DNA of 64,000 nt, from NCBI GenBank assembly GCA_905178155.1, contig CAJINV010000015.1:581309-645308 (forward strand), written 5' to 3'. This document shows positions 29,701 through 50,119 of the stretch, piece by piece (the stretch's first letter is position 1; each line of letters begins with the position of its first letter). The position numbers and the translations under genes were made by a program. Source of the DNA: Amoebophrya sp. A120 (lineage: Eukaryota; Protista; Dinoflagellata). A model generated the notes under the pieces. That model did not search any database. It was not told where the DNA came from and saw only the letters and a list, made by a program, of their open reading frames with translations.

Positions 29701-32700
29701 TGCGCCTGGACAGCAATGACTGAATGCCCTGCCCCGGCGCCCGTCCTCGCTGACTCTGCCCAAGCGCGCAGCAGGGGCCCCAGCAAGCCCCTGCCCTGCA
29801 AGACCAAGCGCGGGAGAAGGGCGGGGGGGCACCAACGCGCACAGGAGCAGGGCGCACCGGCAGGCGTCACAGACGGGCCACAAAACAGACGCGCGGGCGG
29901 GGCGTGACGCGCCAGAGCCGCGCATGGCGCGGGCTGTTCTCCTGCTTCCTACCTTCCCCCGCCCACTGGCGCCCGCCCGCTGCCGCGCTTTGCGTCGTTG
30001 TGCCTAAGGCTTGCCGCCTCAGAAGCGCGGGCCCAATACGGGCGGGGTCCTCGCGCTCGCACAACGACGGGAACCACGGGCGCCATGGCGCTCCGCCTTC
30101 GTTCTTTCAACACGAAGCGGCGCAAAGGCTTGGCCCCGCCCTGCATCAGAATTTTTTTCCCTTGCCCCCCCTCTGGCGTTTTTCTTTCCCCCCTGTCAAC
30201 TCGTTAACCTTCCCACTGTGCGACATAAGCTGCGGCCTTGTATATACTATTTCCCGGGTACTGAAAACGTGTCTGTCATGCTAGTTAGGCAAAGGGGTGC
30301 CTTCTCTCATGCTAGTCAGCAACCCAATTCTGAACCCGTAGAAGCACAATGGTCGGCCTCCATTGCGTTCTCTGCAATGCAGTCGTTTTGGTGTCGCATT
30401 GCATGCATCACAAATTATTTCCACTTTGAGGATTTCCATTCTGAGGGTGTCATACGACCAGAGCCGAGAGATTCCGGTCGGACAACCTCACCGAAACTTC
30501 ATTGAACAGAGCGTTATGGATTGCAAAAGTGTCTGGGTCTGGAAGAGTGTGATAAACTTGTCATGCAGATTGTCCATGACCCATGAGGTCTGGAATGCGG
30601 GACTTAGCATGACAGACTCTGCGAGGTCTCTGCCATGCCTATCCTGCATGAGAAACTCCCTCGCAACTTGGTCGAAAGTGGACAGCTTTTGGTCATCATG
30701 CAACACAGATTTTTGCATGATTCTGATTTACCATGACAAGTTCCACTTTTCCAGACCCAGACATTTTTGCAGTTGATAGGCGTGAATCCCTTGCAACAGC
30801 TCCTGCTTCTGCTGCCGAAGTTCGAGCAGAAAGGTTTTTTTCTCCTGCTCGGAAAACGCCTTCTGCTGCGCGTCCTGCTGTGGATCCTTGTCTTTCGTTC
30901 GCGTAATATCCTTATCAAGTGTAAAAGTGTCTGGGTCTGGAAGATTCTGACACTTGTCATGCACGTTTTGCATGAGCCATGATGTCTGTGATGCATACCC
31001 TAGCAATACAGATTTCTTGAGGGCTTCTTGATGCCTATTCCGCATGACAGATGCCTTCTCAGCGTAGCAAAAATTGCATTCCCTTTCTTGGTACTCATGC
31101 AATACAGATTTTTTTGGAATCCAAATGCAGCATCACAAGTTGCATTCTTCCAGACCGAGACACTTTTACATTTGATAATCCTTGTTACCCGAGGAGGCAG
31201 AGGTCAACGACAGTGCGGAAACACCGTCGGCAGCGGCGGAGATGGCTGCGACCGCCGAAGAAGCTGCTGATGTCGCGGCTGCCGTACTACTTGTACTGTG
31301 GTCGCCGGGCTTCATGCTGTTTTTCCGTTTAACATTCCCACCGGCACCTACTGGGCCTGCACCTCCTGCAGCTCCAGATGCGCTTGCTCTTCCGACGAGA
31401 TGAGACAAAGCAAGCCCACCGCCGGACGAATTCGCGGAAAAGTTGCCGTGAACGATCTCGAAATACTGCGCAAACAGCTTGTTCTATCCAAGAATAAAAA
31501 AAATTGTAGGTGTAACCTTTTTGGAGGAACAGCATTACAAATTTGTCTGGCATGACAACAAAAACCTGTTATGCGCAGATAGTACGTGAAGACGCCCTGT
31601 AATGCACCCTACGACGCATGCCAAGCATGACAGACACAATCATCTTGCATGTTGCGCATCACAAATTTACACTAACAACGTTTTTTTCTTGGATATGTTC
31701 CCATCGTTTGCGGCGAAGGAGAGCTTCGTGAAAATCTCCAACGACGCGCGGAGCCAGACCAGCCAATATGCTGTGCAAGAGTATCGCACTCGTAGCAATC
31801 GCATGTATGCGCGACAAATCTCTTTTTCAAGGTAAATCAGCATGAGATATTCCACTTGTCATGCTGAGCAAATTTGTGATGCGATTACTACTAGTGCGAT
31901 GCTTTTGCAAGTCATAGCCAGTGGTCTCTGTTGAAGAGCGACCCAAAGCCGTGCGACAAGTCGATAAGCTTCTTCGTTTTTACCAGGTTTGCCTTGTCAA
32001 CAAAGTAGCAGTCCTGGAATAAAACCTGGGCCGACTGCTGGTAAAGCTCTTGGTGTTGACCACCTTGAAGATGGGATTCCAAAAAGGACCTCCCGGTGAG
32101 GCTCGTGCGATGAAAGAAGTCTTCATCTCGCACTAAGCAGCTGTCGGCGGTTTTTTGCAACAAAAGCGTCATCTCCTCCTCGAGATGAAAAGAACCGTTC
32201 AAAGCCAGCAGAAACTCCAGATGCTTCCACAACTTCTGCACAAACCTTAGCCTCTCCGCCTCCTCGTTGGTATGCTGCTGATGCTGCTGCGCGGCAGAGA
32301 TTTGTTGATGAGGCCCCGGCTTCGCTGTTCCACCTCCAGGATGATCTCCTGCTGCACTGGATACACTATTCAACATCGCTGGAATGACTTTCGGCTCGGA
32401 ATAGTACACTCCGTCTACTACACTGTTATTGCTCATGATCCCGATAGTCGCTGCACTTTGCGCCGCCTCTTCGTGTTCGATCCACAGCAGATTCTCATAC
32501 CCGACCACACGATGGCATGGCGTTCTCAACTGTTACACTCTCAGCTGTTACACGAATTTGTGACGCAAGAATGGTAACAATGAACGAGGCAAGCTTGCTG
32601 CTTTCGCATGACAGATTTGGCACAGATTTAGATGCTGTTTGGCCTCTCGTAGATTTGTCATGCGAAGCAGCTTAATGGTGGCAATCTTGGTGGTGAATTT

Positions 32701-35700
32701 GCATGACAAATTCATGTAACAGTTGAGAATGTAACACTTGAGAACGCCATAGATGGTCGTAGTTTTGTCGCCAGGAGAGGAGTTTCGAAACCGAGTAGAT
32801 CTATCCTGTGCAAAAGTATCGTACTCGTAGTAATTGCATTCATGCATTACAAATCTTTTTCTTAAGGCAAATCTGCATTACAAATTTCATTTCTCATGCT
32901 GAGAAAATTTGTAATGCAATTATACGAGTACGATACTTTTGCAGTTCATAAGATCAGGTTCGTCGCAACGCTGTCGAGACACTGCTTCACAGACAGTTGC
33001 TGGTCATTGTAATTTTGCTTCAGAAACCGGAAGGGGATCATCTTTCGCGCTTCCACGTCGGACACAGAATTCACCATGGCTTCGTACAAGCTAGATATGA
33101 TCGCGAAGAGGACCGAGACGTGAGAGTCGATGGTGGTAGAGGGCGCCGTGATTGTTGAGGACGGATGTTTAAAATTACTAGATGTTGAAAAAGGACAACT
33201 CGAAGAGGATGTTGGTCTACTGGATGTCACTCTCGAGAAGAACGACTGCTGCTTGCGCACGAAGTTTGGGAAGAAATCGTTGGTCATCTCCTGTTGAAAG
33301 CTGTCCCGGCCTAGAATGGGGTGAGTTCGAGTTGCCCCCGCTATCATGCGCTCGTCATGGGAGTTCGGACTTGCTTCATACCCCTCGTCCAGAAAATCTA
33401 CTTCGCCTTCACCTTCTGTCGTACTAGCATAGTACCGTAGAAACCCCACGTCTTTATGGGGTTCTCAAACGTTACATTCTCAAGTGTTACATGGATTTTT
33501 TGGCATGCAAAATTGCCATAAGCAACCGCACGACCAAGCGGCTGCGCATGACAAATCTCCGAAGGGCTAAACAGCATGGATGTCTGTGCCAAACTTGTGA
33601 TGCTCGAGTTGCAAGGTCCTCCCTTTCACTTTCGCTTTTCTTGCATCAGAAATCCACGCAACAGTTGAGAATGTAACATTTGAGAACGCCATAGTCTTCC
33701 AATAGGAATTTCGGGTCCCGGAATAGTTTCAGGAAAATGGAGTCTAGAAACGGGTTATCAAATGTAAAAGTGTCTGGGTCTGGAAGATTCTGAGACTTGT
33801 CATGCACGTTTTGCATGGGCCATGATGTCTGCGATGCATGCCCTAGCATTGCAGACTTTTTGAGGGCTTCGCGATGCCTATTCCGCATGACAAATGCCCT
33901 CTCCGCGTAGCCAAAATCGATTCCCTTTGCTGGTCATGCAATACACATTTTTTTGGAATCCAAATGCAGCATCACAAGTTCGGACTCTTCCAGACCCAGA
34001 CACTTTTGCTTTACATACGGGTAGCAGTAGTTTTCTGCTTCATCGTGTTTCAGTATATGAACGGACAAAATGCAAAACGGGACAGTAAAAAAACCAAGAA
34101 AAATCGTGATTTGTATCATTTAGTGTGTTTACAAACAACATCCGGAACGACCGACTGCTACTCCTCCGCGGATCGCAACACTCACGACTTGATCTCCTGC
34201 AAGACAAATTCGACGAAAGAACTTGGGAGCACAACCGACTGGTGTGGTTTCGGACCGCCTGCTGATCTTCGTGCTTCATCCTCCGTCAGAGCAAAGATCT
34301 CAGGCACTTTTTTGCCATGCACGAGCGGATACGACCAAAACTTGTGGTTTAATACAGAACCACAAGGATTCGCGCCAAGGGGAAACAGAGATACGAGGGA
34401 GAAAGTCGTGACTTGTTGGCGCACGCAACCATGCTGGGATTCGTTGCTACAGGTTCATTGAAAACGAAGACAAAAGGAAACAGGGTTTGCTAATAGTTTT
34501 GGTGACAACGTCCCTCGATTATTTTTGTTTGACTGTGTCTTATTTGCCTTTATCTGCAGAAGGTCTTGATGTTGAAGTTGCAACTAAAGTTCAAGTTGTG
34601 ATGTAGTGCTGCCAAAAAATAAAAATTACGACTTGCATAGGGTAACACACAACCGGGCGTCTGGGTCCTGTAAATGATGAAGCTACTTCTACTTCAACTA
34701 CATCTCGGTGTATCTTAATTTTTTTGCGAGCGAAATCGACAACGCAACACTGCTGAGAGCGAAGTGCTGACTTCCTACCTGGAAGTGAATGAAGCTGGTG
34801 CACGAGTAGACGGATCTACACTACGAACGACCGAAAAAGTTAGCTTATTGCTGTATAGAAATACGAGTGTAAAATATTATCATTAACATTCAGAATCTGA
34901 ATCAGAAATGTGCGAGAGTTTGAGTAAACTATTTCTGCAAATCATTCTACGGATTAGAAAAAGGCGCTACTGAAAATAAAACGTGGCGATGGAGTTTGCT
35001 TTTGCTAAATATAAACTGCTGATATTGATAAACTACACCTTCTGCTTCTTGCTCGGTGTGAGCTCCTCTTCATCCACTTTTTCATTTTCCTCATCATCAC
35101 CTTCCAACTGCAGCAAGTTGATCTTCTTCTCCTCCGCCTTCATCATGTTGGCCCGCATAGATGCGAACGGGTTCAGCAAGTCCACCTTGTTTTCCGCATG
35201 CGGATTGATCACCGGCGCGCTGGAGCTGGAAGAAGCGGAACTGCTGGAGGCCGCCGTGACCTCGGACACGACCTTCTTCGCCTCCTCCGTGAACTTCTGC
35301 ATGTTGGATGCCGCCGCGGCCTTGCTCCCGATGTGTTTCGAGATGTTCTGCATGTCGATGTCGGCCATGTCGCTCGAAATCATGCAGCTCCCCAGGTCGG
35401 CCATCGCCTTGAACGCTTCCTTCTCCTTCTGCAGGCTCTTGTCCCATTTCTCGCGGGCGGTCTTGCCGGTCGGCGGCTTCGTCGGGTCCTCCTCCATGTC
35501 GAAAAAAGCCGGCACCGGCTCTCTGGTTTTGAAGGGGATCTTGAACTTCACGCACAGCTGCTCGTCGCCCTCCAGGTCGAAGCGGTACGTGGCCGGCTTG
35601 AAAACGATGCTCTCCCCGTCGCCGATCGCCGCCGTGCACTTCCACACCATCTTCAACCCCTTCTGGTAAAAAGCGGCCTTGTCTTCCTCGAATTCCCCGG

Positions 35701-38700
35701 TCACGGTGATAGGGATTTCGACGCCCCGGACCTTGGTCTTCCGCGCCGCCGCAGTGTTCAGCCAGAACTCCGAGTTGACCCCCTCAATGTCCTTTTGTTC
35801 GTAAAACTCGCTGTCCAGACGAATGTTCTCCATGGACACCTTCGTCGTGATCTTGCTGCTCATCATGGAGTGCACCTCAAAAAAATCGAGGGTGGAGCAG
35901 GCCACCGCCTTCTCCTCCAGGTCGGTCAACAACTTCTTGTTCTCATCCCGCAACCGTTGCAACTCCGCCTTCTCATCGTTGTGCGCCTTCTCGATCTCCG
36001 TCGCCATTTCCATCTGCACGCTGTCGTCGTTGGAGTTGTTCCGCTTGATTTGTTTCTTCTTCGCCTCCTTGTTTTTCAGGATCGTCGCCCGCAGCTTCGA
36101 GTACTTGGATTCGCAGTCGTTAATCTGCCGGGTCAGCGCAGTTGTCGCCAACTTCCCCTGCTTGGTGTAGTACTTCTCCTCCACGTTCTCACACTTGCCC
36201 ACGATCGCGCACTGCTTGTTGTCCAACATCTGAAACGCGCCGGCATTGGCGTAATCCAGCCGCACCACCGTCTTCGCCACCAAGTTACCGCAGGCAATGA
36301 CCGGCGCGTTGAGCAGCTTGATCTGGGTCATGCCCTTGAAGGCCTGGGGGGTAATTTCCATCAACTTCGAAATCGGCGCGAGGATGAGACTGAGCCAGCC
36401 ACCCTGCTTGTTCTGCTCCTGTGCCCGGGCCTTCGACAACTTCCACGTTTCGGGGTAGGCCAGGCCACAGTCCTCCGGGGTTAGCCCCACGACGGTTTTG
36501 GTCTGCAGGTCGGTCAACTTCAGGTTGTCGCGGTCCTGTGGTCGATGAAGTGGGTTGTTGTGAGAAGGGCGACATCAGATGGCTCTACCTCTACGCATGA
36601 CAAATTCTAAATCTTCTCCTTCAAAATCAAAATTGCAAAAATATTTTAACGATGAGATTCCACGAGTCCAAAAAAAAGCAAGCAGCTATACCGTCCACAC
36701 CAACGCCTCCCGGTCCTCGTCCCACTGCTTTCCGGTCTTCGCGTTTCTGATCATCTCGGCGATGATGTGTACGAGAATTAAGTTCTTTTGTATCCAGAAG
36801 AAATAAAAAAAGAGATCAAGGTTGGGCGGGAAGTGTGCATGACAGATTTTTTTTTGGATACAAACAGACTTATTCTGCATGACAAACTTTAACTTTTACT
36901 GTGCATGATCATGATTTTGCATGACAGACTGCGACTGGAGTTGGAACATCTTCACGCGATCGCGATAAAAATTTTGCATGACAGATTTGCTGAACATATA
37001 TTCTATCTTCCCCTGCGTCGACCTTGTTCTCATTATACTCACTGCCATACGCTCCTGGACTCGCTCCGACATTCGGGTGCCCGCAGCTTCGTCTGGCCGC
37101 AGGTAGTTGTTCCGCACCAGCTTGACGATCGCTGTCATTTCCTCCACCCCGATTTTAATTCCCTTCACCCCCGCGTACAACTCCGTCTTCACAAACCCGT
37201 CCTGGCCGCACCACAGCTGCAACCACGCAGACGCCGAGTAATCCTTCACCGGGGGCGTTTGGTACTGGAGCTTGACAGCGTATTCATGAGCAAAGCAGGC
37301 GAATTGGTTCACGCTGGTTGGTGCGGTTCGAATTTGACAAGACCAACTGCAGAGCACACAGTGATCTGCAGGTGGTAAGCACCATCTTGCACAAAAATTA
37401 ATACAGACAAATTCCGGACCAACTCTGTTGAAGCAAAACACCAACGTCTGCGCCATACAACGCGGATGACGGAGCTGTGGCGAGATGTAATGTGGGGTGG
37501 GGAGTGCGTCGTGCTTTTTGTGATGCATTACGGCACTATGCAAAGCAAATCTGTCATGCGTAGAAAGCAGCACACTACCTGATGAACTGGGCATACTTGG
37601 ACTCGTCGTTCCTCGTGGAATACCGCCGCATAAAATGCGGCCAATTGGTCGACAGCCTGGTCAACAGCTTACCCAGGTACAAGAGCTCGGTAATTTCGTA
37701 GTGATTGCGCGTGGCAATGCAATAGGTCTGTTTTCGGAACGTAAATAGAAATAGGATCAGAATTTCTCATGCAGTTTTCGAAATTAATAGGATCAGAATT
37801 TCTCATGCAATTTCCTCAGGCGAATTAAACAACAACCAGAAGCGATCACAAAGACCATCGATACCCGATAAAAATCCAGCTCCTCCTGGGGGGTGGGTTT
37901 GTGCTTCAGCGTTGCCTTGTGCTTGTTCCAAGCTTTCTCGATCTGGAATGTGAAAGAAGTGCTTTGCTATTTTGCTAACTTCCAAAAACAAAACCCAAAA
38001 ACAGCTCGCATTAGTCACGTCATCATCTTCGCACTAGTCACGTAAAGCAATTTTTTTTCCTAAGTCTTGATTGCCACCGCGCTGATCGACATCCGCGATT
38101 TTGCAAAACCAGCAATAAGGACTAGCACCTGCAGAACAACAACAAAGGCCAAACGATGGCGCGCAAGAGCAGTAAAAGCCAAACCAAGAAGAGCGGGGCA
38201 AAGGCTGCGCAGAAGGCAGCGGCGGGCAAAAAACTGCAGGCGAGGCCGACAGGGCATGGCAAAGAAAACGCAGCGGATGGGGAAGAGCGCAGCGGTTCCC
38301 TGAGTATGTGCGACGCCCGTCGATTTGCAGACCAACTCGCAAAATCAGCAGGGCGGAAAAAGAAGGCCGGCGAGGCCTACAAGCTTTGCTGGCTCCTGCA
38401 ATGTTTCACGGGGCGGAGGGGCATCGACGTTCGCTCCCTCACCCTCGCGGACGTCGAGCCGGGGCGGGTGCGCATCGGAAACAGTAAGCTGGCAAAGCAA
38501 CCAAACGGCCGCGGCCACCTGAAATGGGTGCCCATCGATCCGGCGAAAGCAACGGCCACCTTCATAAGAAACCAGCTCGCGCAGATGCGCGAGGACGGAA
38601 AAAAGGCGGGCGATAAGATTTTCAATTTTGGATATGAGGCGTTCGAGCTGAAGGTGAGGCAGGTTCGCCAAACCTTCAAAACCCGGAACGCCCTCTCCTG

Positions 38701-41700
38701 CCCCGCGACGCTGATTACGTCCCACACGCCAAGGCGATCCCTGGCGTCCCACCTGTTTCGCAACAGTGTCGCGCTATCAACGATTCAACAGATTACTGGC
38801 CACGCATCTGTTGCGACCCTGATGAGATACATCAACGCGGACTACAGTTTTCAGCTGCAGGCCGCTTCGCTCGTCAAAATTTGATAAGAAACAAAACGCA
38901 AAAAGGATTTAATTTACCATGGGAAAAAGTACGAGCACTTTCTCAGCCGTAGTGGCTTCCATCCCGGTAACACCCTCGTTTTTACAATTAATGTAAGTGT
39001 CGAGAAGTCGACTGAACTCTGGCTGGTCGAGTCGTTCATCCAAGATGTTGCACCTTGGTTGTTTTTTATTTTTGTCATGCGGATCATAGGCATCTCCCTG
39101 TGAACCACCATGATACTGCGCAACTACCATGGGGAAACCGTTAACCCTATTAATCTTACAGTAAGACCGTGTCTGGGAATTTGAATGTAAAAAAATTTCA
39201 AAAACAGATGCAATACACGAGCCCGATTTTGAACGCACGGTCCCCATACTTCGCATGGAAACGGAGGAGCGCCTGAATGCTGTGATTACCGGACACCGGG
39301 CGGAGCTTGCCCTTCGACCGGAGCAGGAAGATTTCTGGAAGGTGTTATTTTTTCAAATCTGTAATGCTGTTCATTTCGAATAGAAGAGTGGCTGCATGAT
39401 GCTTTTCAACTTTTATCTGCTATGAGAATTTGTCATGCGGAAACGATTTGAAAACAGGTAAAGTACTGGCGGTGTTGTAAAAATTCCCCTTCACCATGTG
39501 GCCGAACAACTCGATCATCCACGATAACTTCCGCAACAGGTTCTTCGCGTGCATCGCGATCATGGTGAGAATCGTAGCGGTGATGAGGATATCACCGGGC
39601 TGCGTGCGGTCGTAGCACCGGTCCTCGACGAAGTCGATAAGCTGCTGCTGATTTTCCAACTCCCCGGCGTCCTTCTTCCGGAGCAGCTCGTCCGCTTCTT
39701 CTTTCGTTGGAAAGGTAGTAGGGGTTATTTCTACTTTTTCCTTGTTGGCTTCTTGCTCGTCGGACTCCAATTTGGGCCCGCCCGGAAGGAGCATATCCTT
39801 CAAAGCCTCACCGGCGTGCATGATTTTTGCAGTTTTTTTCTAGTGTGTGCAACGCCTGAAAAATTACAAAACACTCATAAAATGCTACTACTCTATCTGC
39901 TGAAGGCGTCTTTCGAAGCATGCAATCTCGCAAATCATCAACAGGTAAGAGCACATCAAAGACGGAAAATTCAAGGCCCGAAACAGTTCTTCAAGTGGTC
40001 ACGACAGGTCCCAGAGAGAGGTATTTGCATTGGAATGAATGCTGTCCAACATAGATTTTTCTGTGAATTTCACATGTTTTTCCAAGTCGCAAAAAATAGG
40101 CGAATCAAGAATCTTGGTTTTTTCCTAGATTTTTTTTCCGCGAATGGACAATTCTTGGCCAGAACCTGGCTTTTTGGCGAAGAATTGGCCAAACGGAGGA
40201 AAAAAATCAAGGAAAAAACCAAGATTCTTGATTTGGTGATTTTTGGAGGTCGTGAAAACTCATCAACTTCTCGCTAAAAAAAGGCTACCCGCGCCTCGAT
40301 CTCATCATTAATTTAGTGGTGGAGAGTTACATTCTACGACCCAACGAACGCGGAACACACGACGAAAAAACGCAAAACGAAGCCGATTTCATGGCGAGCG
40401 CAACAACGTAGGAGGCTGGTACTAGCTGTTTTATAGAAGCACTCCACGCAGTCCACTCTACATTTTTACTACTATGAAACGCCTCAAACGTTATGTCTCG
40501 GAGCAGTCGAACCGCCACTGCTACGTTCCAAAACCGAATAAACAAGCGGAGCCAAAGTTGTACTAAAATTATACAAGAAAATGCTTTGAGCCAGAGCCGG
40601 CTAAGAAACAAACTAAAAGATCACGCACCTGTGCACAAACATCAGTTGTCTTCATCACTTGACTCCTCACTGTCACTACCATCCTCCACCATCTTGCTGT
40701 ACTTCGCGGTGCTTTGAATGTACTGCTGTATCACCTGCCAGGATGCTTGCTCCTCAGCATCAGTGACATCCGGAAGGGGTTCGTTTTTGNNNNNNNNNNN
40801 NNNNNNNNNNNNNNNNNNNNNNNNNNNNNNNNNNNNNNNNNNNNNNNNNNNNNNNNNNNNNNNNNNNNNNNNNNNNNNNNNNNNNNNNNCGCAAAAAATA
40901 GGCGAATCAAGAATCTTGGTTTTTTCCTAGATTTTTTTTCCGCGAATGGACAATTCTTGGCCAGAACCTGGCTTTTTGGCGAAGAATTGGCCAAACGGAG
41001 GAAAAAAATCAAGGAAAAAACCAAGATTCTTGATTTGGTGATTTTTGGAGGTCGTGAAAACTCATCAACTTCTCGCTAAAAAAAGGCTACCCGCGCCTCG
41101 ATCTCATCATTAATTTAGTGGTGGAGAGTTACATTCTACGACCCAACGAACGCGGAACACACGACGAAAAAACGCAAAACGAAGCCGATTTCATGGCGAG
41201 CGCAACAACGTAGGAGGCTGGTACTAGCTGTTTTATAGAAGCACTCCACGCAGTCCACTCTACATTTTTACTACTATGAAACGCCTCAAACGTTATGTCT
41301 CGGAGCAGTCGAACCGCCACTGCTACGTTCCAAAACCGAATAAACAAGCGGAGCCAAAGTTGTACTAAAATTATACAAGAAAATGCTTTGAGCCAGAGCC
41401 GGCTAAGAAACAAACTAAAAGATCACGCACCTGTGCACAAACATCAGTTGTCTTCATCACTTGACTCCTCACTGTCACTACCATCCTCCACCATCTTGCT
41501 GTACTTCGCGGTGCTTTGAATGTACTGCTGTATCACCTGCCAGGATGCTTGCTCCTCAGCATCAGTGACATCCGGAAGGGGTTCGTTTTTGTATTCGCAC
41601 ATCTGTCCGCAGAGCTCCCTGCGGGCCCGCGCGATTGATTCCCGGTCCAACATCCTCCCCGTAGTTACCCTGGAAAAATTCACATCCTCCAAACTAGTCA

Positions 41701-44700
41701 AACCGCCACCACGAACCTTGCGGCGAAACCGGATCGGAATTTTTCCCGACCAGTTGCTGTTCTCCGGTCGGAAGATGATGTACAAATTTTCCAGCAGGGA
41801 GGAGTGCTTTTTTTCTGGCACTGCGTCAAACATGTTGTAGTTCTTCCAAGGGTCCTCGCGCTCGGTGCGCGACGATGCGGCTTTAGAAAAGGAGGCCCCC
41901 TTGACATCCTTGTTCTTCGCCGATTCCGCATTCCGCACAACAACATCGGCCCGGAGGTACTCTTTTGCCTGCCAGCGGTTTTTGTCGACGACGACATACA
42001 GCTGCTTGTCGTCCATCGTCCAGGAAAAATGCGCCGTGGGGTTTGAGTGCCATTTGAACATCTTCGTGAGCGTGGTCGGGGCGGGACGGGATGTCCAGTG
42101 GGCGACCGTTTTCACCGAAGGCTGCGCAAGCTGCACCGGGTATCGCTCGCACTCTCTTCCTGCGATGGTAAAAACATCCTTGAGCGGGCCGCATGCTAAC
42201 AACCATCCCCGCTGCTTCTTTGTCCTGAAGCACAAGTAGGGAAACTCCGGGTCTGGGTTGCGGCCCGTCGGAACGCGCACGACGAGATCACCAGTCTTCA
42301 CGTAGGTCATTATGTTGACCTTCGACCCGATGTGCCACTTCAACGTGGCGGGAACGTCGAAGAAGTTCTTCACAAGCTCCGGAACGACTGTAGCACCATG
42401 CTGACCAAGGGGACCACCGACACGGCCGGGCTGCTTCACCGCTGTGTTCTCGCTGTAGTCGGCCTGCGCATGCAGTGCGTGCTCGAGTGTTGGGTGGACG
42501 TACTCCCGGTCGTTCACCTTTTCCAAATCCACGAGCACCTGGTTCTCAACCACCATCTCCTCCTCCATCCCGAAAAGGTCATCTTCCTCCGCCTCGTTGC
42601 CACCCGGCGCCGCAAGTCCGCGCACCTGCCGCGCACGCTTAGCAGCCTGCTTCCCCTTTTCGTCTTTCGCGGTCGCAAATCTGTTGTCGCACAACTTCCG
42701 CACAAGTTCTCTGTTTTCCTTGTACTCGCTGAAGGACATGCTGAGCTCGTCGCCGATTTGTGCGCGAATCCCTGCGCGCGTGCACCCGAGATTTGGCGCG
42801 ACCCGTTTGTTGTTGGTGGTAGTACTGTGTCGCGCTTCTGTGACCTGCGACGACGAAACCATGAGGGGCACCAAGGGGCCGACGATCTCCTGTAGCCGGG
42901 CCGACATCGCTCCGCCGTTTGCGACCTGTTCAAGATCGGTCTTGTGCGGGATCTGGATCCAATTGAGAAAACAATCGCAGTCATCTTTGGGCAGGAGGAG
43001 CAACAACTGTGCTGATTTTTTCGCCGTATCGTCCACCGTGTCCTGCAGCCCTCGCAACAAATTCGGATACGTCCAGAGCGTCTTCTCCCGCGTCGGCAGC
43101 CGGATGAAAACATTCAACAGCAACAGCATCCCCGTGGTATCTCCCGGCCTTGTCAGCATGTGGTTCTCGATGGCCCGGAGCAGCTCGGTCTTTGTTTTGG
43201 GTTTGTGGCAGTGGTGCGCCATCTCCGCCAGTCGGACATTGGTGTAGACCTGTTTCAAGTCGGCCTTCAGCCGGTTGCTCTGCGACGAGACGATGGTTAA
43301 AGCGGCGCGAGCAGATTCACACGTTGACCAAAACGCCGGGTCCGCTGCGGACTTTTTCGCCGCTTTAGCCGTTGCGCGGTTTTCTTCTTTTTTGTTTTTT
43401 GGTTCCAGGTTCCGCAGGAGCTGCTGTATCTGGGTGCGGTTTTTCAACAAATCCTCAACACAGTCCGAGAACGTCTGCCACCGGTGGGACTGATACTCCC
43501 GGATCGCCATGTGCTGCGGATCCCCGGTCTCCGGCCCCCAAAAGTGAATCGCTTTTTGCAATTTCCCGACCTCCCCAACAAACCCGTCCCGCATGGAGTT
43601 CAAAACCTGGAGATGCTCGCCGTCCAAAAGCGAGTACTGGTGGTGCAAGCATACGAGCTGGACCACGAATGTTTGGATCAGGAGGCCGCTTTTTTGCCCC
43701 CGCGCCTTTTGCTCCTTGCGTTTGACGTTCAGCGCCCTGCTGCACGTGCGCAAAACGTTCATCGCCTTGACGACATCGCTGCCGCAGTCTGTGCAGCTGA
43801 TTATCACCAGCAAGGGGTCCGACGGGAAGTCATCCACCGTCGATCCCGGCATGGGGATCAGATCCGCGAGCAAGTGGTACAACTCGCATAGGTACGAAAG
43901 ATAACCACGCGCAACGGAGCCGTGCTTCGTCGGTGGCGGCACAAATGTTTTCACAACCGGAACCCCGTCCACCATTCGCACCAACGTGACGTCGACCGCC
44001 AGAAGCTCGGCAGAGCGGAAATCGGTCGCGTCGGGAGCTATGCGGACCACAACGAGCGGTCGCAACAACTTCGGAACCTGATCAAGCTTCGCCTCCTTTT
44101 TCGCAAGGTGTTCTGCCAACTTCGAATCCGCCTCCAGACGCATCTCACCCAGGAATCGCCCGTTGAAAACAAAAGGCTGCCAGTACTTCTGCCCCTTCGG
44201 GTTAATGTCCGTGTCGAAGATGCAGTGAAGGTCGCGCTTGGTCCGCATGTCGTAACACTTCCCGGCCAGGACCTCACTCCGCTCTGCCATCTTCCGATAC
44301 GTGTCGAGCAGCTGCTTCATGTAATCGTCCGCGCGCTGCTTCTCCGCCTTCGCTTCGTCGTGTGATTTGTTGTTTCCCAGGATGTTGAGTTTCTGCCGCT
44401 TCGCGGCTCCACCAGCTAAAGCCAACTCGCCACCACTCTCACCGCACCCCAACTCAAAAACCCTGCTTCCCGTCGGCGCTAGCATCTCCATGGTGCCGAG
44501 CACGTTGAACCTCGTCTTCTGCGTGACAATTTCGGAAAAGCCCCAAAGCTTCTGCAGTAGCGCGATCTTCTTTGTTGATGTTCCAGTACTTGTCCCGACC
44601 ACGTACTGCAAGTACTCATTTCTTTCCTTCCTGGTTTCCAATTTTTCAAATTCGGTTTGGGAGTAGTGGGCCTCGAATTCAGCCCAGACGGAGCGACGCT

Positions 44701-47700
44701 GCGCCTGTCGAAGCCGGTTTGAGTTTCATTGATTAGTAGCTCTAGCTGGAAACGGAATTATGCAGACGAGATGGATGGGAACTAGTACTAGATGTAGAGA
44801 CGCGAGCTGCATGACAAATTCAAAAAGCAGACTTGATTTTGAAAATCTAATGACGAATAGATCTAACTGTAACTGTAACCCTAAACCACAACCAGGCACC
44901 TCTCCCGTCCCATCTTCGTCATCCACTTTGCTGTTGGGGCCTCGCTTCGGCCGCTTGCGACCTGTGGAACCAAGGTCGCAGTTGGGAATCTTCAAGCCGT
45001 GCCGCTCCTCCATTTGGGACAGAACGAACGAGCGGATGGAGGAAACGCTGGCCCATCTCGCCGTTACCGCGCCGCCCGCGGTTTTTGCCCGGCGGTTGTA
45101 TGTCCGCTGGAGACTTCTCTCGCACGGCGGAGCAGTTGTTCCCTCGCCCGTGGCGGCGATCTCCTCGAGCCTGGTAATGACCTCTACTACATCGCCCCAC
45201 CCATCGATGGATTCCACCAGTTCGCGCGCCTCGCCATAATCGCTTAGCACCTGGACCGTTTTCGAAGATGCGCCAAAAACTCCTTCGTCGCTACTGGATC
45301 CGCCGGCGTTCTGGTTTTCGTCGAGGCCAACATCGACGTCGATGTCGTCGATGCCTGGTATAAAAAGATTCGCGACGTCGTCCATCTCTATGCCGGGAGG
45401 AAAGCGGCGGTATAGCACGATAGGACGGAAGACACAATGCGCACGCAGGTAAGAGGACACGACTACGCCATTTTTTTTTTTCGGTCTTCGTCTTTTAATA
45501 TCGTGGTCGAAGTCGAAGCGATTGCATGTTTGTATTGCGTAAGAAATCAAAAGCAAGACCAAATATAAAAACAATAGGAAAAGTTGTTATGGGTTTCCAC
45601 ATAATCAAAGTCAGTTTTAATTTACAATAAAGGCAAGGCAGTGTCAATGTCAAATCTATCAATAATGAAGGGCGGCTCTCTTATTTTCGTTTATCGTTAT
45701 CGCATCAGAATCAAAATGAAAAAAAAAAACTACAGGTGCGAGGCTCGGGTGCATTTCGTGACAGCAGGATGGGGAATACTACTTACGCAATCAGCTTTAC
45801 ATTCATTAGCGACAACTATGTGCGACGACAACAACTCCCAGACAGACACTAGCGACGACCATGATGCTCCAGCTCCTGTACGAAAATTGTAACGACTTGA
45901 ACTCCAACCCCCCGAAAGAGAACAACCGAAGAAAACACGAGCCCCCCTTCATGATAACGAGGTCGATTTGCAGTCGAGACCGATGTGAGCTCTGCACGTG
46001 CACGAGCACTTCCCGAGGAAAAAACACAAGTGCGCCACATAGACCAACAACTACGCCACGACACACCTGTGGTCGCTGTCGGGCTACTACTGAAGATCAA
46101 GATTGTACGCACACAGCAGCAGCCGTGAATTGTCAGGGCGCGGTGGGATCACAATCACCAAAAAATGAAGACCTACGCACATGATACGACGGACTCGGGT
46201 AAACGTCGCGCTCGTGAACGAGATGAAAACTATTTTTGGTTCCATGAAACAAAGTCAAAGCGCAAGTGCTAGCGCACTTATCACTGCGCCACCTCAGATC
46301 TCAACCTCGTACGCCCTTCGCACCAGGGGAGAACGGAAGATCTTCCCGCACGGCCACAACCTGCTCTTCCAGTTCACCACATCCACAGCAGCGTCGCATT
46401 ACAAACCTCCCCGACCGGTCGCGATACCTGATGTTGTTAGTAGTGGCTGTTGCTGGCGAAGGAGATGGAAACTCAAAAACTTATGATGAACATTTGAACT
46501 GTTGGCATTACGCATGAGATTTGAAAAAATTACGAACGTGAAGAGCAAGGCGCTCCAACTTGTTTCTTCAACATGCATGCTCATTCGGTGCTTTATGCAA
46601 ACCATTTCCAGCAACAGACACTACCAACATCATCGGCATCTGTAATGCTAATTCCAATGCGGAGCAACAGCAATAAATCTTCCCTGAGCTGCCCGGCCAT
46701 GATGTGATCCGCTCCCGGTTTCTCATTATCAACAGGCCGGCCATGTTCCTGGTCCACTTCCAACTTCTTCGGACTTTCCCTATAGGCGAATCCTTGTGGT
46801 TCTGTATTAAACCACAAGTTTTGGTCGTATCCGCTCGTGCATGGCAAAAAAGTGCCTGAGATCTTTCAATGTGGTTGCTGATCTTCGCGGGCCGAGCAGA
46901 ATGATCGCGTTCAGAAATCCGAAAAGACCATCGTCTGCACTTCCGCGTCGCAGCTTCGTTGTTGTCGATTCCAGTCGTTGTCGGTCGGCCAAGCGGTATC
47001 GTCGCGTCGCCTCACACATCGGTTTCGAACAAAGCAAAAGCTACAAATCACGATTTTTCTTGGTTTTTTTGCTGTCCCGTTTTGCATTTTGTCCGTTCAT
47101 ATTTCAGTACCACGCAGGAACTGTCCAGGGCGTAGGAGAGCAGGTGGGACAGTTCCTCGTGGAGACAAGTGAAGAAGGTGAGTGGAGCGACTTCTGTGAG
47201 TAGACCGCTATCATTTGCTGTACTGTAGTCCTCTTCTCCGTTCTTGCCGTGATCTTTTTGCGCACCTGCTGTACTAGTACCGCCACCTTCATCCACCCTA
47301 GTAGAAGCGGCGGGGGCCCCGTGCTGGTGTAGCTGCCCGGCAGAATTACGTCCGCCAGATTGATGTTCCCGCAAGCACAGGCCGGCGACGATGTCCGAAA
47401 CTTTTGCCACAACCCGCTTAGAAGTACCAGACGATGATCCACCAGCTGCACGAGAAAAGGCGCTGGAAACTGTACAGCGTCCCTCACATATCATCAGGTT
47501 CTTGAGTAAAACCGGCGTGACAAACAATTTCAGCAAAAAGCACAAATCTTCGCTGTCCATCGTGAACAGTTCCATTGCTTTTCTGTTCAGCACCACAGTC
47601 TCAATCAGCTCCAGACAAAGCAACCGGGGCCACCGGACGGAGCACAGCCAAAATCCCGGCTTGGTTTGGAGAAAGTCCTGGTTTATTTCCTGAAACTGGG

Positions 47701-50119
47701 AGGACGCGGATCGCTGCAGCAGATGGCCACTTCCGGTTGATGCTCCACTGGGGTTCGTAGAAGACGAGGACCCGCCCGTGATAAAATTCATTCCTGCGCC
47801 GAGAATGCTGGTCACTGGATTGAGCTTAGAAGCTGCTGCTGCTGCTGTAACCGCACTGGAAGTAGGTCCTTGTTGGCCAATGTTTATTCCCAAATTGAGA
47901 TTAGACCCAGCTGCGCTGCCCCCACTTCCGACTGGTGTGCCGGGGATCGAAGATGAATCTCCAGTAGTGCTTTGTTCAAGAGCAGCGGCTCTCCTACACT
48001 CCGCTATCTCCTCATCGCTGCAATCCAGCATGACACACAAATCCTGCAGGAATAAATAAAGCAGTCGGACAGCGACGTCGGTGCTGTTCGTGGGTTGTCG
48101 TGGCTTCGTGTTGCGGAATTGCGAAGTTTGAATCGACGCGGAAGCGGAAGCCAGCATGTTGGACATCTTGTTCCGGGCTGTGGGATTGAAGGGGGGCTTG
48201 CTGTAGTTTCCAGAACCTGCATTGGCTTTACCTCCTGGTACAGACGAGGTAGGTCCTCGTCCTAGCAAGCCGAATTTCGGCAAAATCCCCGAGTCCAAAT
48301 CCTGCAGCCATGGAGGTGGCGGGTGCGATATTACCGGCTTCTTGTGTCGGCCTTTTTTGCTTTTCTGGTGGCGAGAACCAGCTCCCGCCGACTCGTGATG
48401 GTTATCATTATCTGCAATACCTGGCGGGAGAGAAGAAGACTCCCCGGTGCTTCCGGAGATCGGTAGTTGCCTCCTCTGACCAGTAGAGGACGAAGTTGCA
48501 CCCGCCCCCCCTCCGTCCGTTTCAGAGCAGGTGGACTTTTCGTTATCGCTGTGTTGTGCGGTGTATGCATTGCAAAAGTATCGTACTAGTATAAATCGCA
48601 ATACAAATTTTTCCAGAAGGAAAAATGGAGCTTGTGATGCTGATTTCGCTAAGAAACAAGATTTGTCATGCATAATTTCAATTAGTACGAGTACGATACT
48701 TTTGCACAGGATACGGTGGTACCTCCGGATTCGCCCGTGGCACTAATTGGAATGTTGGTGCTGCTGGCATGAAGATTTATTTGCCGCGAAGAAGATGATC
48801 CACCAGCGTTTTGATGTTCCACCGCCTGACATGCCGTTTCTGTCAACTGCTCTGCCAGTTGCAACAGGCTCCCCCGGGCGACGCTCTGGACGACTGGGGA
48901 GGGAAGTTGAAGCAGGATGGAGAAAACCTACGTTGATAACAAGTTCAGAATTTTGGATGCAGCTGCTTGTCGCGCAAGCCTACGCTATGCGAGACATCAC
49001 ATGCACAGCATGCGGATCTACTGTGCATGCCAAATCACGGTCACTTCTCACTGAAACAGCCGAGGTAAAAAAATGTAGAGTACGTCACGCTGGCGCCATA
49101 TCAAATGCAAAAATGTAAATGTCTGGGTCTGGAATGAAGCAACTTGCCATGCCAAATCTGAATCATGTAAAAATCTGTGTTGCATGATTACCAAAAGCTG
49201 TCCACTTTTCACCTAATCGAGAGACTGTTTCTCATGCAGGATAGGCATGATAGAACTCTCACAGAATCTGTCATGCTATGTCCTACATGCCAGACCTCAT
49301 GGGTCATGGAAAACCTGCATGACAAGTCTAGCACTCTTCCGGACGCAGACATTTTTGCATTTGATACGCCAGCCTTACCTGCAAAAGCTGCTCCACCACA
49401 ACTTCCCTGCTTGAGTGGTCACCAGGCGCCTGTAGTCCGCCCCCGGGGGAAATGGAACCAGCTCCAATTGTTCCTGGTGATCTGCCTCCCCTATCGCCAA
49501 CGCCAACCGTTCCCACCATTGCCAACTCTCTCGACCCCGCGATGCGTTGCAAAATTTGCAAAATCTGCGTTGCAATGGACTCATTGCTGCCAAAAGCGAT
49601 GGCCTGCTCGCGGAGGAGGTTAATGAGTGTGATCAACTGCTCCGCGTTGCTCGCGTCGTTTTGAATTTGTGTTGCGGTGACAATATGAGAAGCTGGATTT
49701 GTCATGCTGGAAGGAGATGTTGAAACAACTGCTGGTGATGAGACCAACCCAAAGTTTTCGACCACCCGTAGCGCGATCTTGAGACACACCGGTATCATTT
49801 TCACATTCCCGGTTTCGCAGCATTTTCGCAGGCACGTCACGTAAGTTTTCAGAGCGGTTGGTGCAGTAGAACTATCGCCCTTGGTGCTCGTCGTTGTGCT
49901 TCCAGTGTCGGTCGTGAGATTCCCTATCTGCTGACAGGCGGCAATGGCTTGCTTGACCTGCTGGCTTCGACCAAAAGTCGAGCATTCCGCAAGCAACGCT
50001 TGAAAATCCTTCTCCAGCTCGTGGGCGAAGATTTGCAGGGTTTTCTCGAAAGGAGGTGCTCCGGGCCCGCCAACCCTTCCTCGGGAGGAGGAAGACGAAG
50101 AGGAGTTCGTGGCTTTCAT
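14800..50119 (-). CDS. MON2: MON2-like (Sec7/BIG-related Golgi-endosome trafficking scaffold), ~35-kb gene split by ~22 introners, canonical introns and a 13-kb transposon; 3' end approximate
   Basis: N-terminal DCB-like LEKDFQALLAEC...CLRKCCETGNVKMIPVCL...IATQILQIL; HUS-like RLLCLELIETVVLN; VNVSFTAIKYLWESAD; WLQLFRQLQISCLDPRREVRDCALKSL; KQWGQSV; C-terminal LILCEERAIRDPL. The exon joins I tested are in frame after removing the element plus one DR. Confidence 0.85.
15269..15576. mobile_element. Introner family A
   Basis: tatggaactgtcaggattgaaat / atttcaaacctgacgcttccata; DR ccgtc; join ART-GDAVQEIF in frame. Confidence 0.93.
16418..16567. mobile_element. Introner family C
   Basis: tatcctgtgcaaaagtatcg / cgatacttttgcagtgcata; DR attct. 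Confidence 0.92.
17205..17920. repeat. 17-bp tandem minisatellite (GCTCGAAATATTTCCCA)n with degenerate flanks
   Basis: Near-perfect array ~17326-17820, no spacers. Confidence 0.97.
18100..18650. repeat. Degenerate ~105-150-bp tandem repeat, about 5 units
   Basis: Recurrent core ttcccctgggtagccagaattgctgYgctaaacacagcaactcgg. Confidence 0.85.
20107..20255. mobile_element. Introner family C
   Basis: tatgaactgcaaaagtatcgcactcgtataaatgc / gcatttatacgagtacgatacttttgcacaggata; DR ggagg. Confidence 0.93.
21526..21793. mobile_element. Introner family B
   Basis: tatcaactgtaaaagtgtctgggtct / agacccagacatttttacatttgata; DR gccgt. Confidence 0.93.
22271..22597. mobile_element. Introner family H (single copy here)
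   Basis: tattgagaggaaaaatcccccctccccatatcaaa / tttgatatggggaggggggatttttcactttgata; DR acaac. Confidence 0.92.
24005..24267. mobile_element. Introner family B
   Basis: Family B TIRs; DR gcagt. Confidence 0.93.
24319..24626. mobile_element. Introner family A
   Basis: Family A TIRs; DR agaaa. Confidence 0.93.
24960..25221. mobile_element. Introner family B
   Basis: Family B TIRs; DR aatcg/aatcc. Confidence 0.9.
25285..25415. mobile_element. Introner family I (diverged)
   Basis: tattgacagaaaaaaaacc / gttttttcctggaagata; DR gctgt/actgt; related to 57364-57481. Confidence 0.75.
26015..26253. mobile_element. Introner family D
   Basis: tatggcgttctcaactgttacaccctcaactg / cagttgagaatgtaacgtttgagaactccata; DR cccag. 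Confidence 0.93.
26349..27178 (+). mobile_element. Non-autonomous Helitron-like element
   Basis: 5' TCTATTATA; 3' GTAG; GC hairpin gccccggc-gtcg-gccggggc (27148-27167) 11 nt before the end; sits between host A and T with no TSD. Confidence 0.65.
27340..28350. repeat. (CGGCCAA / CGGCCAAATCGCAAA / GGGAAACGGCCAAC)n minisatellite spanning an N gap
   Basis: Direct inspection either side of the gap 27574-28275. Confidence 0.9.
28640..29390. repeat. ~18-bp purine-rich minisatellite (GGGAAGCACGGGGAAAAC)n
   Basis: Direct inspection; N gap 28979-29078. Confidence 0.9.
30515..30778. mobile_element. Introner family B
   Basis: Family B TIRs; DR agcgt/ggcgt. Confidence 0.9.
30913..31177. mobile_element. 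Introner family B
   Basis: Family B TIRs; DR atcct. Confidence 0.93.
31485..31695. mobile_element. Introner family J (single copy here)
   Basis: tatccaagaataaaaa...gtgtaa / ttacac...ttttttcttggata; DR tgttc. Confidence 0.88.
31767..31916. mobile_element. Introner family C
   Basis: Family C TIRs (diverged); DR gccaa/gccag. Confidence 0.85.
32516..32751. mobile_element. Introner family D
   Basis: catggcgttctcaa / ttgagaacgccata; DR gatgg. Confidence 0.92.
32802..32950. mobile_element. Introner family C
   Basis: Family C TIRs; DR agatc. Confidence 0.93.
33455..33693. mobile_element. Introner family D
   Basis: Family D TIRs; DR gtctt; join LLED-VGFLRYY in frame. Confidence 0.93.
33756..34017. 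mobile_element. Introner family B
   Basis: Family B TIRs; DR cgggt; join YCYP-FLDSIF in frame. Confidence 0.92.
34056..34115 (+). repeat. Left TIR of the 13-kb element
   Basis: tatgaacggacaaaatgcaaaacgggacagtaaaaaaaccaagaaaaatcgtgatttgta. Confidence 0.96.
34293..34373 (+). repeat. Left 81-bp internal inverted repeat containing a 13-8-13 palindromic site (34337-34370)
   Basis: Exact reverse complement of 46786-46866; core aaaacttgtggtt-taatacag-aaccacaaggatt. Confidence 0.95.
35033..36517 (-). CDS. Transposon cargo ORF, at least 494 aa, unknown function (coiled-coil middle, acidic tail, C-terminal PSKKQKV NLS-like motif); probably has upstream exons at ~36690-36790 and ~37050-37340
   Basis: Long open frame with strong GC3 bias; no family recognised. 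Confidence 0.7.
   Translation of the reverse strand: MTDLQTKTVVGLTPEDCGLAYPETWKLSKARAQEQNKQGGWLSLILAPISKLMEITPQAFKGMTQIKLLNAPVIACGNLVAKTVVRLDYANAGAFQMLDNKQCAIVGKCENVEEKYYTKQGKLATTALTRQINDCESKYSKLRATILKNKEAKKKQIKRNNSNDDSVQMEMATEIEKAHNDEKAELQRLRDENKKLLTDLEEKAVACSTLDFFEVHSMMSSKITTKVSMENIRLDSEFYEQKDIEGVNSEFWLNTAAARKTKVRGVEIPITVTGEFEEDKAAFYQKGLKMVWKCTAAIGDGESIVFKPATYRFDLEGDEQLCVKFKIPFKTREPVPAFFDMEEDPTKPPTGKTAREKWDKSLQKEKEAFKAMADLGSCMISSDMADIDMQNISKHIGSKAAAASNMQKFTEEAKKVVSEVTAASSSSASSSSSAPVINPHAENKVDLLNPFASMRANMMKAEEKKINLLQLEGDDEENEKVDEEELTPSKKQKV
38156..38884 (+). CDS. Tyrosine recombinase (phage integrase/Xer/Fim-like catalytic domain), 242 aa
   Basis: Complete R-K-H-R-H-Y set: FTGRRGIDVRSL (R), GNSKLAK (K), SHTPRRSLASHL (HxxR), TGHASVATLMRY (H...Y). 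Lys/Ala-rich N-terminus. The only clear plus-strand gene in the window. Confidence 0.93.
   Translation: MARKSSKSQTKKSGAKAAQKAAAGKKLQARPTGHGKENAADGEERSGSLSMCDARRFADQLAKSAGRKKKAGEAYKLCWLLQCFTGRRGIDVRSLTLADVEPGRVRIGNSKLAKQPNGRGHLKWVPIDPAKATATFIRNQLAQMREDGKKAGDKIFNFGYEAFELKVRQVRQTFKTRNALSCPATLITSHTPRRSLASHLFRNSVALSTIQQITGHASVATLMRYINADYSFQLQAASLVKI
38909..39821 (-). CDS. Putative multi-exon cargo gene of unknown function, convergent with the recombinase
   Basis: Coding-like segments 39460-39821 (MHAGEALKDMLL...) and 38909-39150, separated by AT-rich intron-like stretches. Confidence 0.4.
40089..41590. other. Apparently identical ~700-bp duplication on both sides of a 100-N gap; probable assembly artefact
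   Basis: 40089-40789 matches 40890-41590; ORF translations are identical. Confidence 0.8.
40103..40233. repeat. Long imperfect palindrome downstream of the transposase (also at 40905-41035 in the duplicated block)
   Basis: aatcaagaatcttggttttttcct...aggaaaaaaccaagattcttgatt arms. Confidence 0.85.
41444..45385 (-). CDS. hAT-family DDE transposase, predicted 2 exons (45385-44900 + 44704-41444, ~1248 aa)
   Basis: hAT motif order: VRIAPDATD (D1), SCTDCGSDVVKAM (D2, cf. TDNASNMVKA), VCLHHQYSLL (CxxH), HRWQTF (cf. TRWNS), SSSQVTEARHS (E, cf. SSAxSERxFS). Phase-0 GT-AG intron 44899-44705 with a CTACTAAT branch-like motif. Confidence 0.85.
46786..46866 (-). repeat. Right 81-bp internal inverted repeat containing the 13-8-13 site (46789-46822)
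   Basis: Exact reverse complement of 34293-34373. Confidence 0.95.
47042..47101 (-). repeat. Right TIR of the 13-kb element
   Basis: tacaaatcacgatttttcttggtttttttgctgtcccgttttgcattttgtccgttcata. Confidence 0.96.
48564..48713. mobile_element. Introner family C
   Basis: Family C TIRs; DR cggtg. Confidence 0.93.
49099..49366. mobile_element. Introner family B, apparently inside a canonical GT-AG intron
   Basis: Family B TIRs; DR cgcca; minus-strand CAG|GTAAG donor just outside at ~49378. Confidence 0.88.

Follow-up and report, generated by a model that had tools for sequence, protein, structure and literature searches.

Since the Tec elements, it has been an open question what a tyrosine recombinase contributes to those eukaryotic DDE transposons that also encode one; the accessible portions of the literature propose only resolution, and they name no target for the enzyme. 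The question returns in a 64,000-nucleotide stretch of the genome of Amoebophrya sp. A120 (contig CAJINV010000015.1, positions 581,309 to 645,308 of the forward strand; hereafter the window, whose numbering is used throughout), where a hAT-type transposon carries a tyrosine recombinase gene. Here the enzyme and its candidate sites lie together in one short element, which yields a clear prediction, inversion in cis; we consider it probable that the element's own recombinase inverts the 11.6-kb core at two inverted sites of 13-8-13 layout while the ends stay put (feature coordinates in Table 1).

The ends of the element are well defined. Its 60-bp terminal inverted repeats (TIRs) agree at 59/60 bases and are bordered by an 8-bp direct repeat, the target-site duplication (34048-34055 / 47102-47109), for which the chance expectation at one given boundary is ~1.5e-5; further inside, 34293-34373 and 46786-46866 pair as perfect inner inverted repeats of 81 bp. 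On these points the initial annotation is confirmed; it had also called the sequence between TIR and inner repeat unrelated, a description that has to be abandoned, since the inverted alignment of the two arms beats 1000/1000 and 999/1000 shuffles under two scoring schemes and identifies them as decayed inverted homologues. The CGAC words shared by the arms, reached in 74 and 39 of 2000 shuffles, may supply part of this alignment score; those of the left arm are possible subterminal transposase sites. By these comparisons, each end of the element is an old repeat of ~320 bp with a decayed middle and an outer 60 and inner 81 bases that are identical or nearly so. Because the arms decayed while these flanking blocks stayed nearly or wholly identical, the inner block is likely to be under selection or in the course of being homogenised; selection or conversion is likewise suggested for the predicted recombinase sites, since they are identical in both repeats and the adjoining arms show only 61/175 ungapped matches. 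Identical copies of a 12-mer lie 10-20 bp outside the inner repeats, one per arm (34260-34271 and 46876-46887), and form a direct repeat, not an inverted one; the 12-mer could be an accessory site or a chance match. Further copies of the element ends were not found within the 64-kb window.

Each 81-bp repeat contains a predicted 34-bp recombinase site, whose 13-bp arms match at 11/13 positions (the inner nine perfectly). Its palindrome score, by either of two measures, was equalled by 1/5000 shuffles of the 81-mer, and its half-sites have no other occurrence in the window. The two sites lie 281 and 279 bp from the element ends, and outward of each the 81-bp repeat continues for 44 further identical bases. 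Published descriptions of tyrosine recombinase targets give inverted arms of 11-13 bp with a spacer of 6-8 bp between them (PMC3212892), and the FRT site has a 13-8-13 geometry (PMC6594588); the two head-to-head sites of the present element fit the geometry of Cre/lox and Flp/FRT (11-13-bp arms, asymmetric 6-8-bp spacer). Near the right end of the core lies a weaker second inverted repeat (46430-46634; 27-bp arms, 89% identical, 151 bp apart), within a 1.4-kb stretch upstream of the transposase that is partly covered by RNA-type contigs.

The initial annotation of the 242-aa protein as a tyrosine recombinase with all catalytic residues is borne out by a PF00589 match of 50.4 bits (cut-off 27.1) and by the conservation of R88, K111, H190, R193, H216 and Y225 in 7/7 aligned proteins, which comprise the query and six relatives (51-62% identical) among 615 candidates; PHROG integrase families likewise match 7/7 recombinases. 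By sequence, the closest solved structures are HP1 integrase and XerA, and IntI4 was also matched; Flp was not among the matches. Residues 1-45 are basic and of low complexity. A 14-bp near-direct repeat at 37990-38030, ~130 bp upstream of the recombinase start, possibly represents promoter elements of this gene. A second recombinase-like match at 63673-63786 contains in-frame stops and was discarded as noise, and a protelomerase reading was dropped in view of the ordinary catalytic set and asymmetric spacer.

The relatives of the two enzymes point to a long association. Four of the six recombinase matches come from Amoebophrya sp. AT5.2 (EukProt), the other two from ENA and JGI/MMETSP; AT5.2 (EukProt) also accounts for nine of ten transposase representatives looked up, plus one cluster member. 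The AT5.2 recombinase g1758 is two gene numbers away from transposase g1760, and g2071 is two away from g2073, the spacing expected from the order in the present element (recombinase, ParB-like part, transposase). With gene numbers as a proxy for genomic position, and with what we take to be a total of 19,925 AT5.2 genes, pairing of 2/4 recombinases with ten transposase numbers has a probability of ~2e-5; the ten are those looked up out of 22 transposase matches, the other 12 being left out of this count. Antisense nested genes are often missed by gene finders. Since the recombinase-transposase spacing recurs in AT5.2, the pairing is likely to be old, and these sequence comparisons support the view that the recombinase is an old, integral part of the element, and no recent stray insert.

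Evidence on the orientation of the core comes from three RNA-type contig sets (X3, X4 and X5). In X5, the flipped junction is present in a 408-nt contig (depth 21.2) that extends from 34463 leftward across the entire 81-bp repeat and continues into 46867-47102; the repeat is flanked in it by 90 unique bases of the core and 236 bases of the arm. In X3, a 966-nt contig (46137-47102) represents the reference junction, and in X4 the repeat and right arm form one contig, with both core ends (34344-34873 and 46144-46815) ending exactly at its 30-base overlap. This combination is what mixed orientations would give, and it hints weakly at them. The left arm, the transposase and the right flank of the locus are without cover in X3, X4 and X5, and were not used as evidence since these contigs drop weak branches; three raw RNA runs (X7, X8 and X9), with 0 reads placed of 3.0-3.3 million records each, are uninformative on orientation. 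Of the proposal that this is a two-enzyme invertible element, as initially made, one part stands, namely a single hAT element with an intact recombinase and two inverted site-shaped sequences; its flipped form is represented by one contig only.

The assignment of the minus-strand transposase to hAT, also made initially, is upheld by motifs and by fold. No Pfam family above cut-off, including the hAT C-terminal dimerisation domain and BED finger, was found in its 1093-aa main frame (41444-44725, minus strand) or in 16 relatives; PDB sequence searches gave chance matches only, and word-index searches for relatives scored 0/8000 and 1/8000. A full HMMER scan of 1.84 billion representatives did find relatives, 22 proteins at E <= 0.001 with 25-38% identity. 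In an alignment of 13 of these, numbered by the 1093-aa frame, D232 and D313 are each present in 10/13, C359xxH362 in 11/13, R415 in 12/13, W416 in 11/13 and E630 in 11/13, the missing residues being mostly gaps or misaligned rows; 398 residues separate the second D from the E, and we take D232, D313, CxxH, RW and E630 to be hAT hallmarks. A 521-residue core modelled from a 16-row alignment reached a mean predicted local distance difference test score (pLDDT) of 70.8, and a single-sequence fold (pLDDT 35) was of no use. With the core model, Hermes occupied ranks 1-10 in Foldseek (best E 5.9e-4, template-modelling score ~0.3), and in a structure search (VIA) it was the sole chain with Z >= 8 among 48,161 (Z 11.1, root-mean-square deviation 6.1 over 279 residues; next 7.1). 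Neighbours of the protein in the Atlas, at 0.85-0.88, are clusters of hAT/DUF659, which we treat as no more than a lead. On its motifs and modelled fold, this predicted transposase is a very divergent hAT, and hAT-type ends (TIRs plus 8-bp duplication) accompany it. In a quick tree of 14 transposases, three recombinase-linked proteins and three others fall into one weakly supported group (81), and a clean clade is not obtained.

The recombinase gene is nested within another gene. What were initially described as unknown cargo open reading frames are exons of one ParB-like gene, as indicated by ordered matches to AT5.2 g14887 and a contiguous splice, with the recombinase antisense in its intron. 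The protein g14887 aligns in order to 39332-39213, 39046-38921, 37730-37578, 37276-37091, 36775-36728 and 36526-35534, and it is this order that carries weight, because the individual E-values range from 1e-6 to 0.3; g18063 aligns to 39713-39474 at E 5e-9. Across intron 38917-37943 the reading frame is kept, and the residues encoded on either side align to adjacent positions in g14887 and g18063; the intron is predicted from sequence and relatives, and its splicing was not seen in reads. Run X5 contains a splice joint at 36786-37051, and therefore the ParB-like gene is transcribed and X5 represents RNA. The gene order of transposase, ParB-like part and C-terminal part is conserved in g14887. 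The N-terminal part bears what we take to be a ParB/Srx-like motif; Pfam ParB, or any other Pfam match, was not detected in the exon or in three relatives, and Atlas placed one relative near giant-virus hypothetical proteins (0.94) and a cluster with 48% ParB_N (0.93), again a lead only.

At the centre of the core lies a 153-bp palindrome, its sole long hairpin (z -11.4, 0/200 shuffles). After correction for an assembly duplicate, discussed below, its axis lies 7.5-10.5 bp from the point midway between the two predicted spacers, a centrality with a post hoc probability of 0.0013-0.0018. Its symmetry and central position mean that inversion of the core would not displace it, which holds for no other internal feature. 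One 12-mer has its only occurrences in the window in the TIRs and the palindrome arms, and of 1250 tiles outside the ends the palindrome matches the TIR best, by only 2 score points (6/1000 shuffles). Its depth equals that of the core, which argues against a high-copy host repeat. Rfam gave only sub-threshold hairpin matches at this position. A nested miniature inverted-repeat transposable element was considered and rejected, as no flanking duplication of at least 7 bp was found. The palindrome lies at the edge of an assembly gap, which it may have caused.

Several observations weigh against inversion. The words from which the contigs were assembled have 31 letters and do not span the 81-bp repeat, and weak branches are dropped, so that the X5 path can arise from a fixed core and a lost left-arm branch; X3, X4 and X5 come from one sample and are not independent; the DNA runs X1 and X2 collapse the repeat and are uninformative on orientation; and no read spanning the 81-bp repeat was seen. 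Two more 11/13 palindromes occur in the 11.6-kb core, and the palindrome score of the predicted site alone is therefore not unique. The recombinase consists of a catalytic domain without a recognisable core-binding domain, and within the intron it is flanked by a 9-bp A-rich direct repeat, a low-complexity sequence. In AT5.2, g1514 and g19144 are without a transposase partner among the ten, and 8/10 transposase relatives are without a listed recombinase nearby. No DNA of any relative was recovered in which the inner repeats of sister elements could be compared: a metagenome scan with the recombinase alignment confirmed 0/240 candidate stretches, a scan with the TIR 30-mer gave 0 matches, related DNA was found in 0/17 prokaryote genomes, and among viral contigs, which gave 0 matches to the site pattern, 1/7 matched the C-terminus of the recombinase at 31%, as a generic integrase (L001 2870-3022) that is probably no close relative.

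Three other explanations have to be weighed against core inversion by the element's own enzyme. The recombinase might use its sites only between copies, in the resolution of dimers, cointegrates or sister chromatids or in core swapping, with the core fixed within each copy; this accounts equally well for the intact enzyme and the conserved sites, and the X5 junction could be a graph artefact. We regard it as rather unlikely, as resolution needs one site per copy and not two inverted ones, a pair of identical sites in cis lends itself to inversion unless some topological filter stands in the way, and the flipped junction appears in 1/3 of the RNA-type contig sets. Still less likely is a passenger origin of the recombinase, perhaps as a Crypton-like gene that entered the intron long ago, with the 81-bp repeats as surviving inner parts of long TIRs, retained by gene conversion or because the transposase binds them, and not recombined. 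Such a history is suggested by the wholly intronic position of the gene and its flanking direct repeat, by the decayed homologous arms, which imply that the ends were once TIRs of ~320 bp, by the eight AT5.2 transposase relatives just mentioned, and by the precedent of MarCry-1_FO, which is such a fusion; yet the recombinase is intact at 51-62% identity and stands at the same gene distance at two AT5.2 loci, the repeat holds a 13-8-13 site and bears no resemblance to the TIR-like motif of the central palindrome, the intron lacks a terminal inverted repeat of at least 8 bp, and GC content at third codon positions is similar in the recombinase (0.70) and the transposase (0.72). As a whole, the element is set apart by its TIRs and 8-bp duplication from Cryptons, which are mobilised by their recombinase, lack TIRs and end in direct repeats of 4-6 bp.

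The core could also be flipped by the host, through homologous recombination between the 81-bp repeats or through template switching between them, with the recombinase serving some other role, and this we consider very improbable: 81 bp is short for frequent homologous crossover, and the 13-8-13 site and conserved enzyme would be left unexplained. Host-driven flipping would nonetheless also yield the X5 junction, and under some replication modes inverted repeats can flip their interior without a site-specific enzyme (PMC3147054).

Inversion by the element's own recombinase, the explanation that we favour, has a model in the yeast 2-micron plasmid, where head-to-head sites yield two isomers (PMC3147054). 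In the present element, the transposase would move the whole unit by cut-and-paste, and the recombinase would cut at the 8-bp spacers ~280 bp inside the ends and flip the core in cis. Accessory elements that pair the two sites of one copy may be provided by the central palindrome and by the 44 additional identical bases at each site. Synapsis in cis would matter because crossing between unlike sites on sister chromatids breaks the chromosome. The purpose of inversion is the weakest step. If the core does invert, the handling or amplification of replicating or excised copies, by analogy with the role of Flp in the 2-micron plasmid (PMC6594588), is a serious possibility that falls somewhat short of an even chance; an expression switch that turns the 5' end of the transposase toward or away from the right arm is slightly less probable, and a by-product of sites used between copies is the least probable of the three and on balance unlikely. 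Tentatively, and with rather more doubt than confidence, we suggest that a hAT family of a dinoflagellate parasite acquired a full module of the 2-micron type, made up of a compact recombinase, a ParB-like protein, a central palindromic organiser and two head-to-head 13-8-13 sites, and may use programmed core flipping to amplify itself or to switch its transposase.

The two-enzyme design has precedents. The initial annotation knew of no described eukaryotic system, but a DDE transposase is paired with a tyrosine recombinase in Tec1/Tec2 of Euplotes, Sardine/Thon of Paramecium and MarCry-1_FO (PMC3212892; PMC3464196; PMC5405496; PMC9797194; PMC12513430; PMC13465315), all of them Tc1/mariner elements. 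Tec1/Tec2 and Sardine/Thon resemble the present element in being eukaryotic TIR transposons of alveolate hosts with a DDE transposase, a tyrosine recombinase, more open reading frames and complex long ends; they differ in their IS630-Tc1-mariner transposase and TA target, compared with hAT and an 8-bp duplication, and in TIRs of 425-700 bp, compared with 60 bp and a separate 81-bp repeat. Neither a target site nor core inversion is given for them in the portions searched, although the original reports on Tec (Doak 2003; Jacobs 2003; Krikau 1991), which lay outside them, may mention inversion; resolution is the proposed role. MarCry-1_FO of Fusarium oxysporum is a mariner with a TA duplication and 16-bp TIRs, its recombinase is a fused Crypton, and the accessible descriptions mention no inner inverted sites. 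The Flp/FRT system of the 2-micron plasmid shares with the present element an element-encoded tyrosine recombinase and two head-to-head 13-8-13 sites inside inverted repeats (PMC3147054; PMC6594588); the plasmid has two isomers and a partition function, at which the present element hints only via its ParB-like gene, and it is circular, has 599-bp repeats and lacks a transposase.

The likeness to hAT elements and Hermes extends to an RNase H-like DDE core with a helical insertion, CxxH and RW motifs, an 8-bp duplication, TIRs and asymmetric subterminal arms; differences from Hermes are the identity of only 9-12%, the absence of a Pfam hAT family, and a 12-kb length with recombinase, ParB-like gene and central palindrome. 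As an analogy only, the strong gyrase site of phage Mu is a cis element at the exact centre of a transposable unit that helps the ends meet (PMC10052514); it is bacterial, gyrase-dependent and, unlike the central structure of the present element, not a palindrome with TIR-like motifs. By these comparisons, the element belongs with the hATs and not with Tec or Crypton, and its predicted mode of operation is that of a Flp/FRT or Cre/lox inversion module built into a hAT transposon. The accessible literature (including PMC6431247; PMC12130899; PMC11962162) yielded no such element with defined sites among hATs or from Amoebophrya, although the tables of transposable element families in PMC12130899 could hold it; in the Amoebophrya genome paper the word recombinase is absent and only two putative transposases are reported. 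Should the core flip, it would provide, apart from the yeast 2-micron plasmid, a natural example of an invertible switch, and of native site-specific DNA inversion, on eukaryotic chromosomes; the two-enzyme design would have a second, independent origin, in hAT; and a 242-aa recombinase working in the nucleus with its site would be a new small Cre/Flp-like pair and a possible engineering tool.

Table 1. Features of the hAT-type element, in window coordinates.
Feature	Position	Strand	Remarks
Left target-site duplication, 8 bp	34048..34055		Direct repeat of 47102..47109
Left TIR, 60 bp	34056..34115	+	59/60 identical to right TIR
Left arm, 177 bp	34116..34292	+	Decayed homologue of right arm; 5 CGAC motifs, one orientation
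Left inner inverted repeat, 81 bp	34293..34373	+	Exact reverse complement of right
Predicted recombinase site, left	34337..34370	+	13-bp arm, asymmetric 8-bp spacer (34350-34357), 13-bp arm
Multi-exon ParB/Srx-like gene	35033..39820	-	From the order of matches to AT5.2 g14887
Approximate exons of ParB-like gene	39820-39430, 39335-39213, 39052-38918, 37942-37860, 37730-37578, 37372-37051, 36784-36692, ~36535-35033	-	
GT-AG phase-0 intron of ParB-like gene, 975 nt	37943..38917	-	Whole recombinase gene inside, opposite strand
Tyrosine recombinase, 242 aa	38156..38884	+	R88 K111 H190 R193 H216 Y225; catalytic domain only
Assembly artefact, 702-bp exact duplicate + 100 N	40088..40889		One of two copies spurious
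Central palindrome, 153 bp	40092..40244		73-bp arms, 82%; arms bear TIR-like 12-mer
Predicted hAT transposase	41444..45385	-	Main exon 44725-41444; probable upstream exon from ATG at 45385
Right inner inverted repeat, 81 bp	46786..46866	-	100% identical to left
Predicted recombinase site, right copy	46789..46822	-	Inverted relative to left
Right arm, 175 bp	46867..47041	-	7 CGAC motifs, one orientation
Right TIR, 60 bp	47042..47101	-	59/60 identical to left TIR
Right target-site duplication, 8 bp	47102..47109		Inside open host reading frame

The element is shorter than the assembly suggests. Positions 40088-40789 are identical to 40890-41591 (702 bp) and adjoin a 100-N gap, and in the DNA-type contig sets X1 and X2, from one sample that may itself be the source of the window, one 11,664-nt contig each crosses the core and omits 808 bases at the duplicate; because of this duplicate and the contigs that skip it, the sizes of 13 kb for the element and 12.4 kb for the core, as initially given, are overstated. 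The element is 12,238-12,244 bp long, with a core of ~11.6 kb. A 6-bp tandem unit at 40588-40593 (equivalent to 41390-41395) is absent from the X1 and X2 contigs, and single-base differences between these contigs and the window, or between each other, occur at 34883, 36219, 41465, 42911, 43614 and 43878, hinting at slightly different copies. Depth in X1 and X2 is 80 and 42 in the core, compared with 42-50 and 25-30 in the flanks, which would fit about two copies, although depth is no copy number. An X4 contig extends 628 letters beyond the right end into sequence unlike the flank in the window; a second full copy was not seen.

When the element and one copy of the duplication are removed, a host minus-strand reading frame is open across the empty site and continues past the next intron repeat, and the insertion therefore lies in a coding exon. 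Upstream in the host gene, Pfam matches are weak and below cut-off (Mon2/Sec7 DCB, E 9e-4; HUS, E 0.02), and a PDB search gave no confirmation of a Mon2 identity. The flanks contain very high-copy, introner-like intron repeats bordered by short direct repeats (33455-34019, 24004-24266, 24959-25221, 30558-31177, 49117-49368 and many others), with summed contig depths of up to 317,000 compared with ~50 for unique sequence; similar introners are described for the genus Amoebophrya (PMC7789003), and a search of the supplementary text file of that paper gave no match. The element's own introns (36590-37560, 39390-39440 and 44810-44830) bear short motifs that resemble the host intron repeats, which suggests long residence in the lineage. 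Elsewhere in the window, Rad51/RecA-like ATPase matches (PF08423, E 9e-5) occur 5 kb away from the element, in a host gene at 51773-54234 (minus strand), and long tandem arrays extend over 17207-18000 (17-bp unit) and 27330-29350 (14/22-bp and 9/18-bp units around N gaps).

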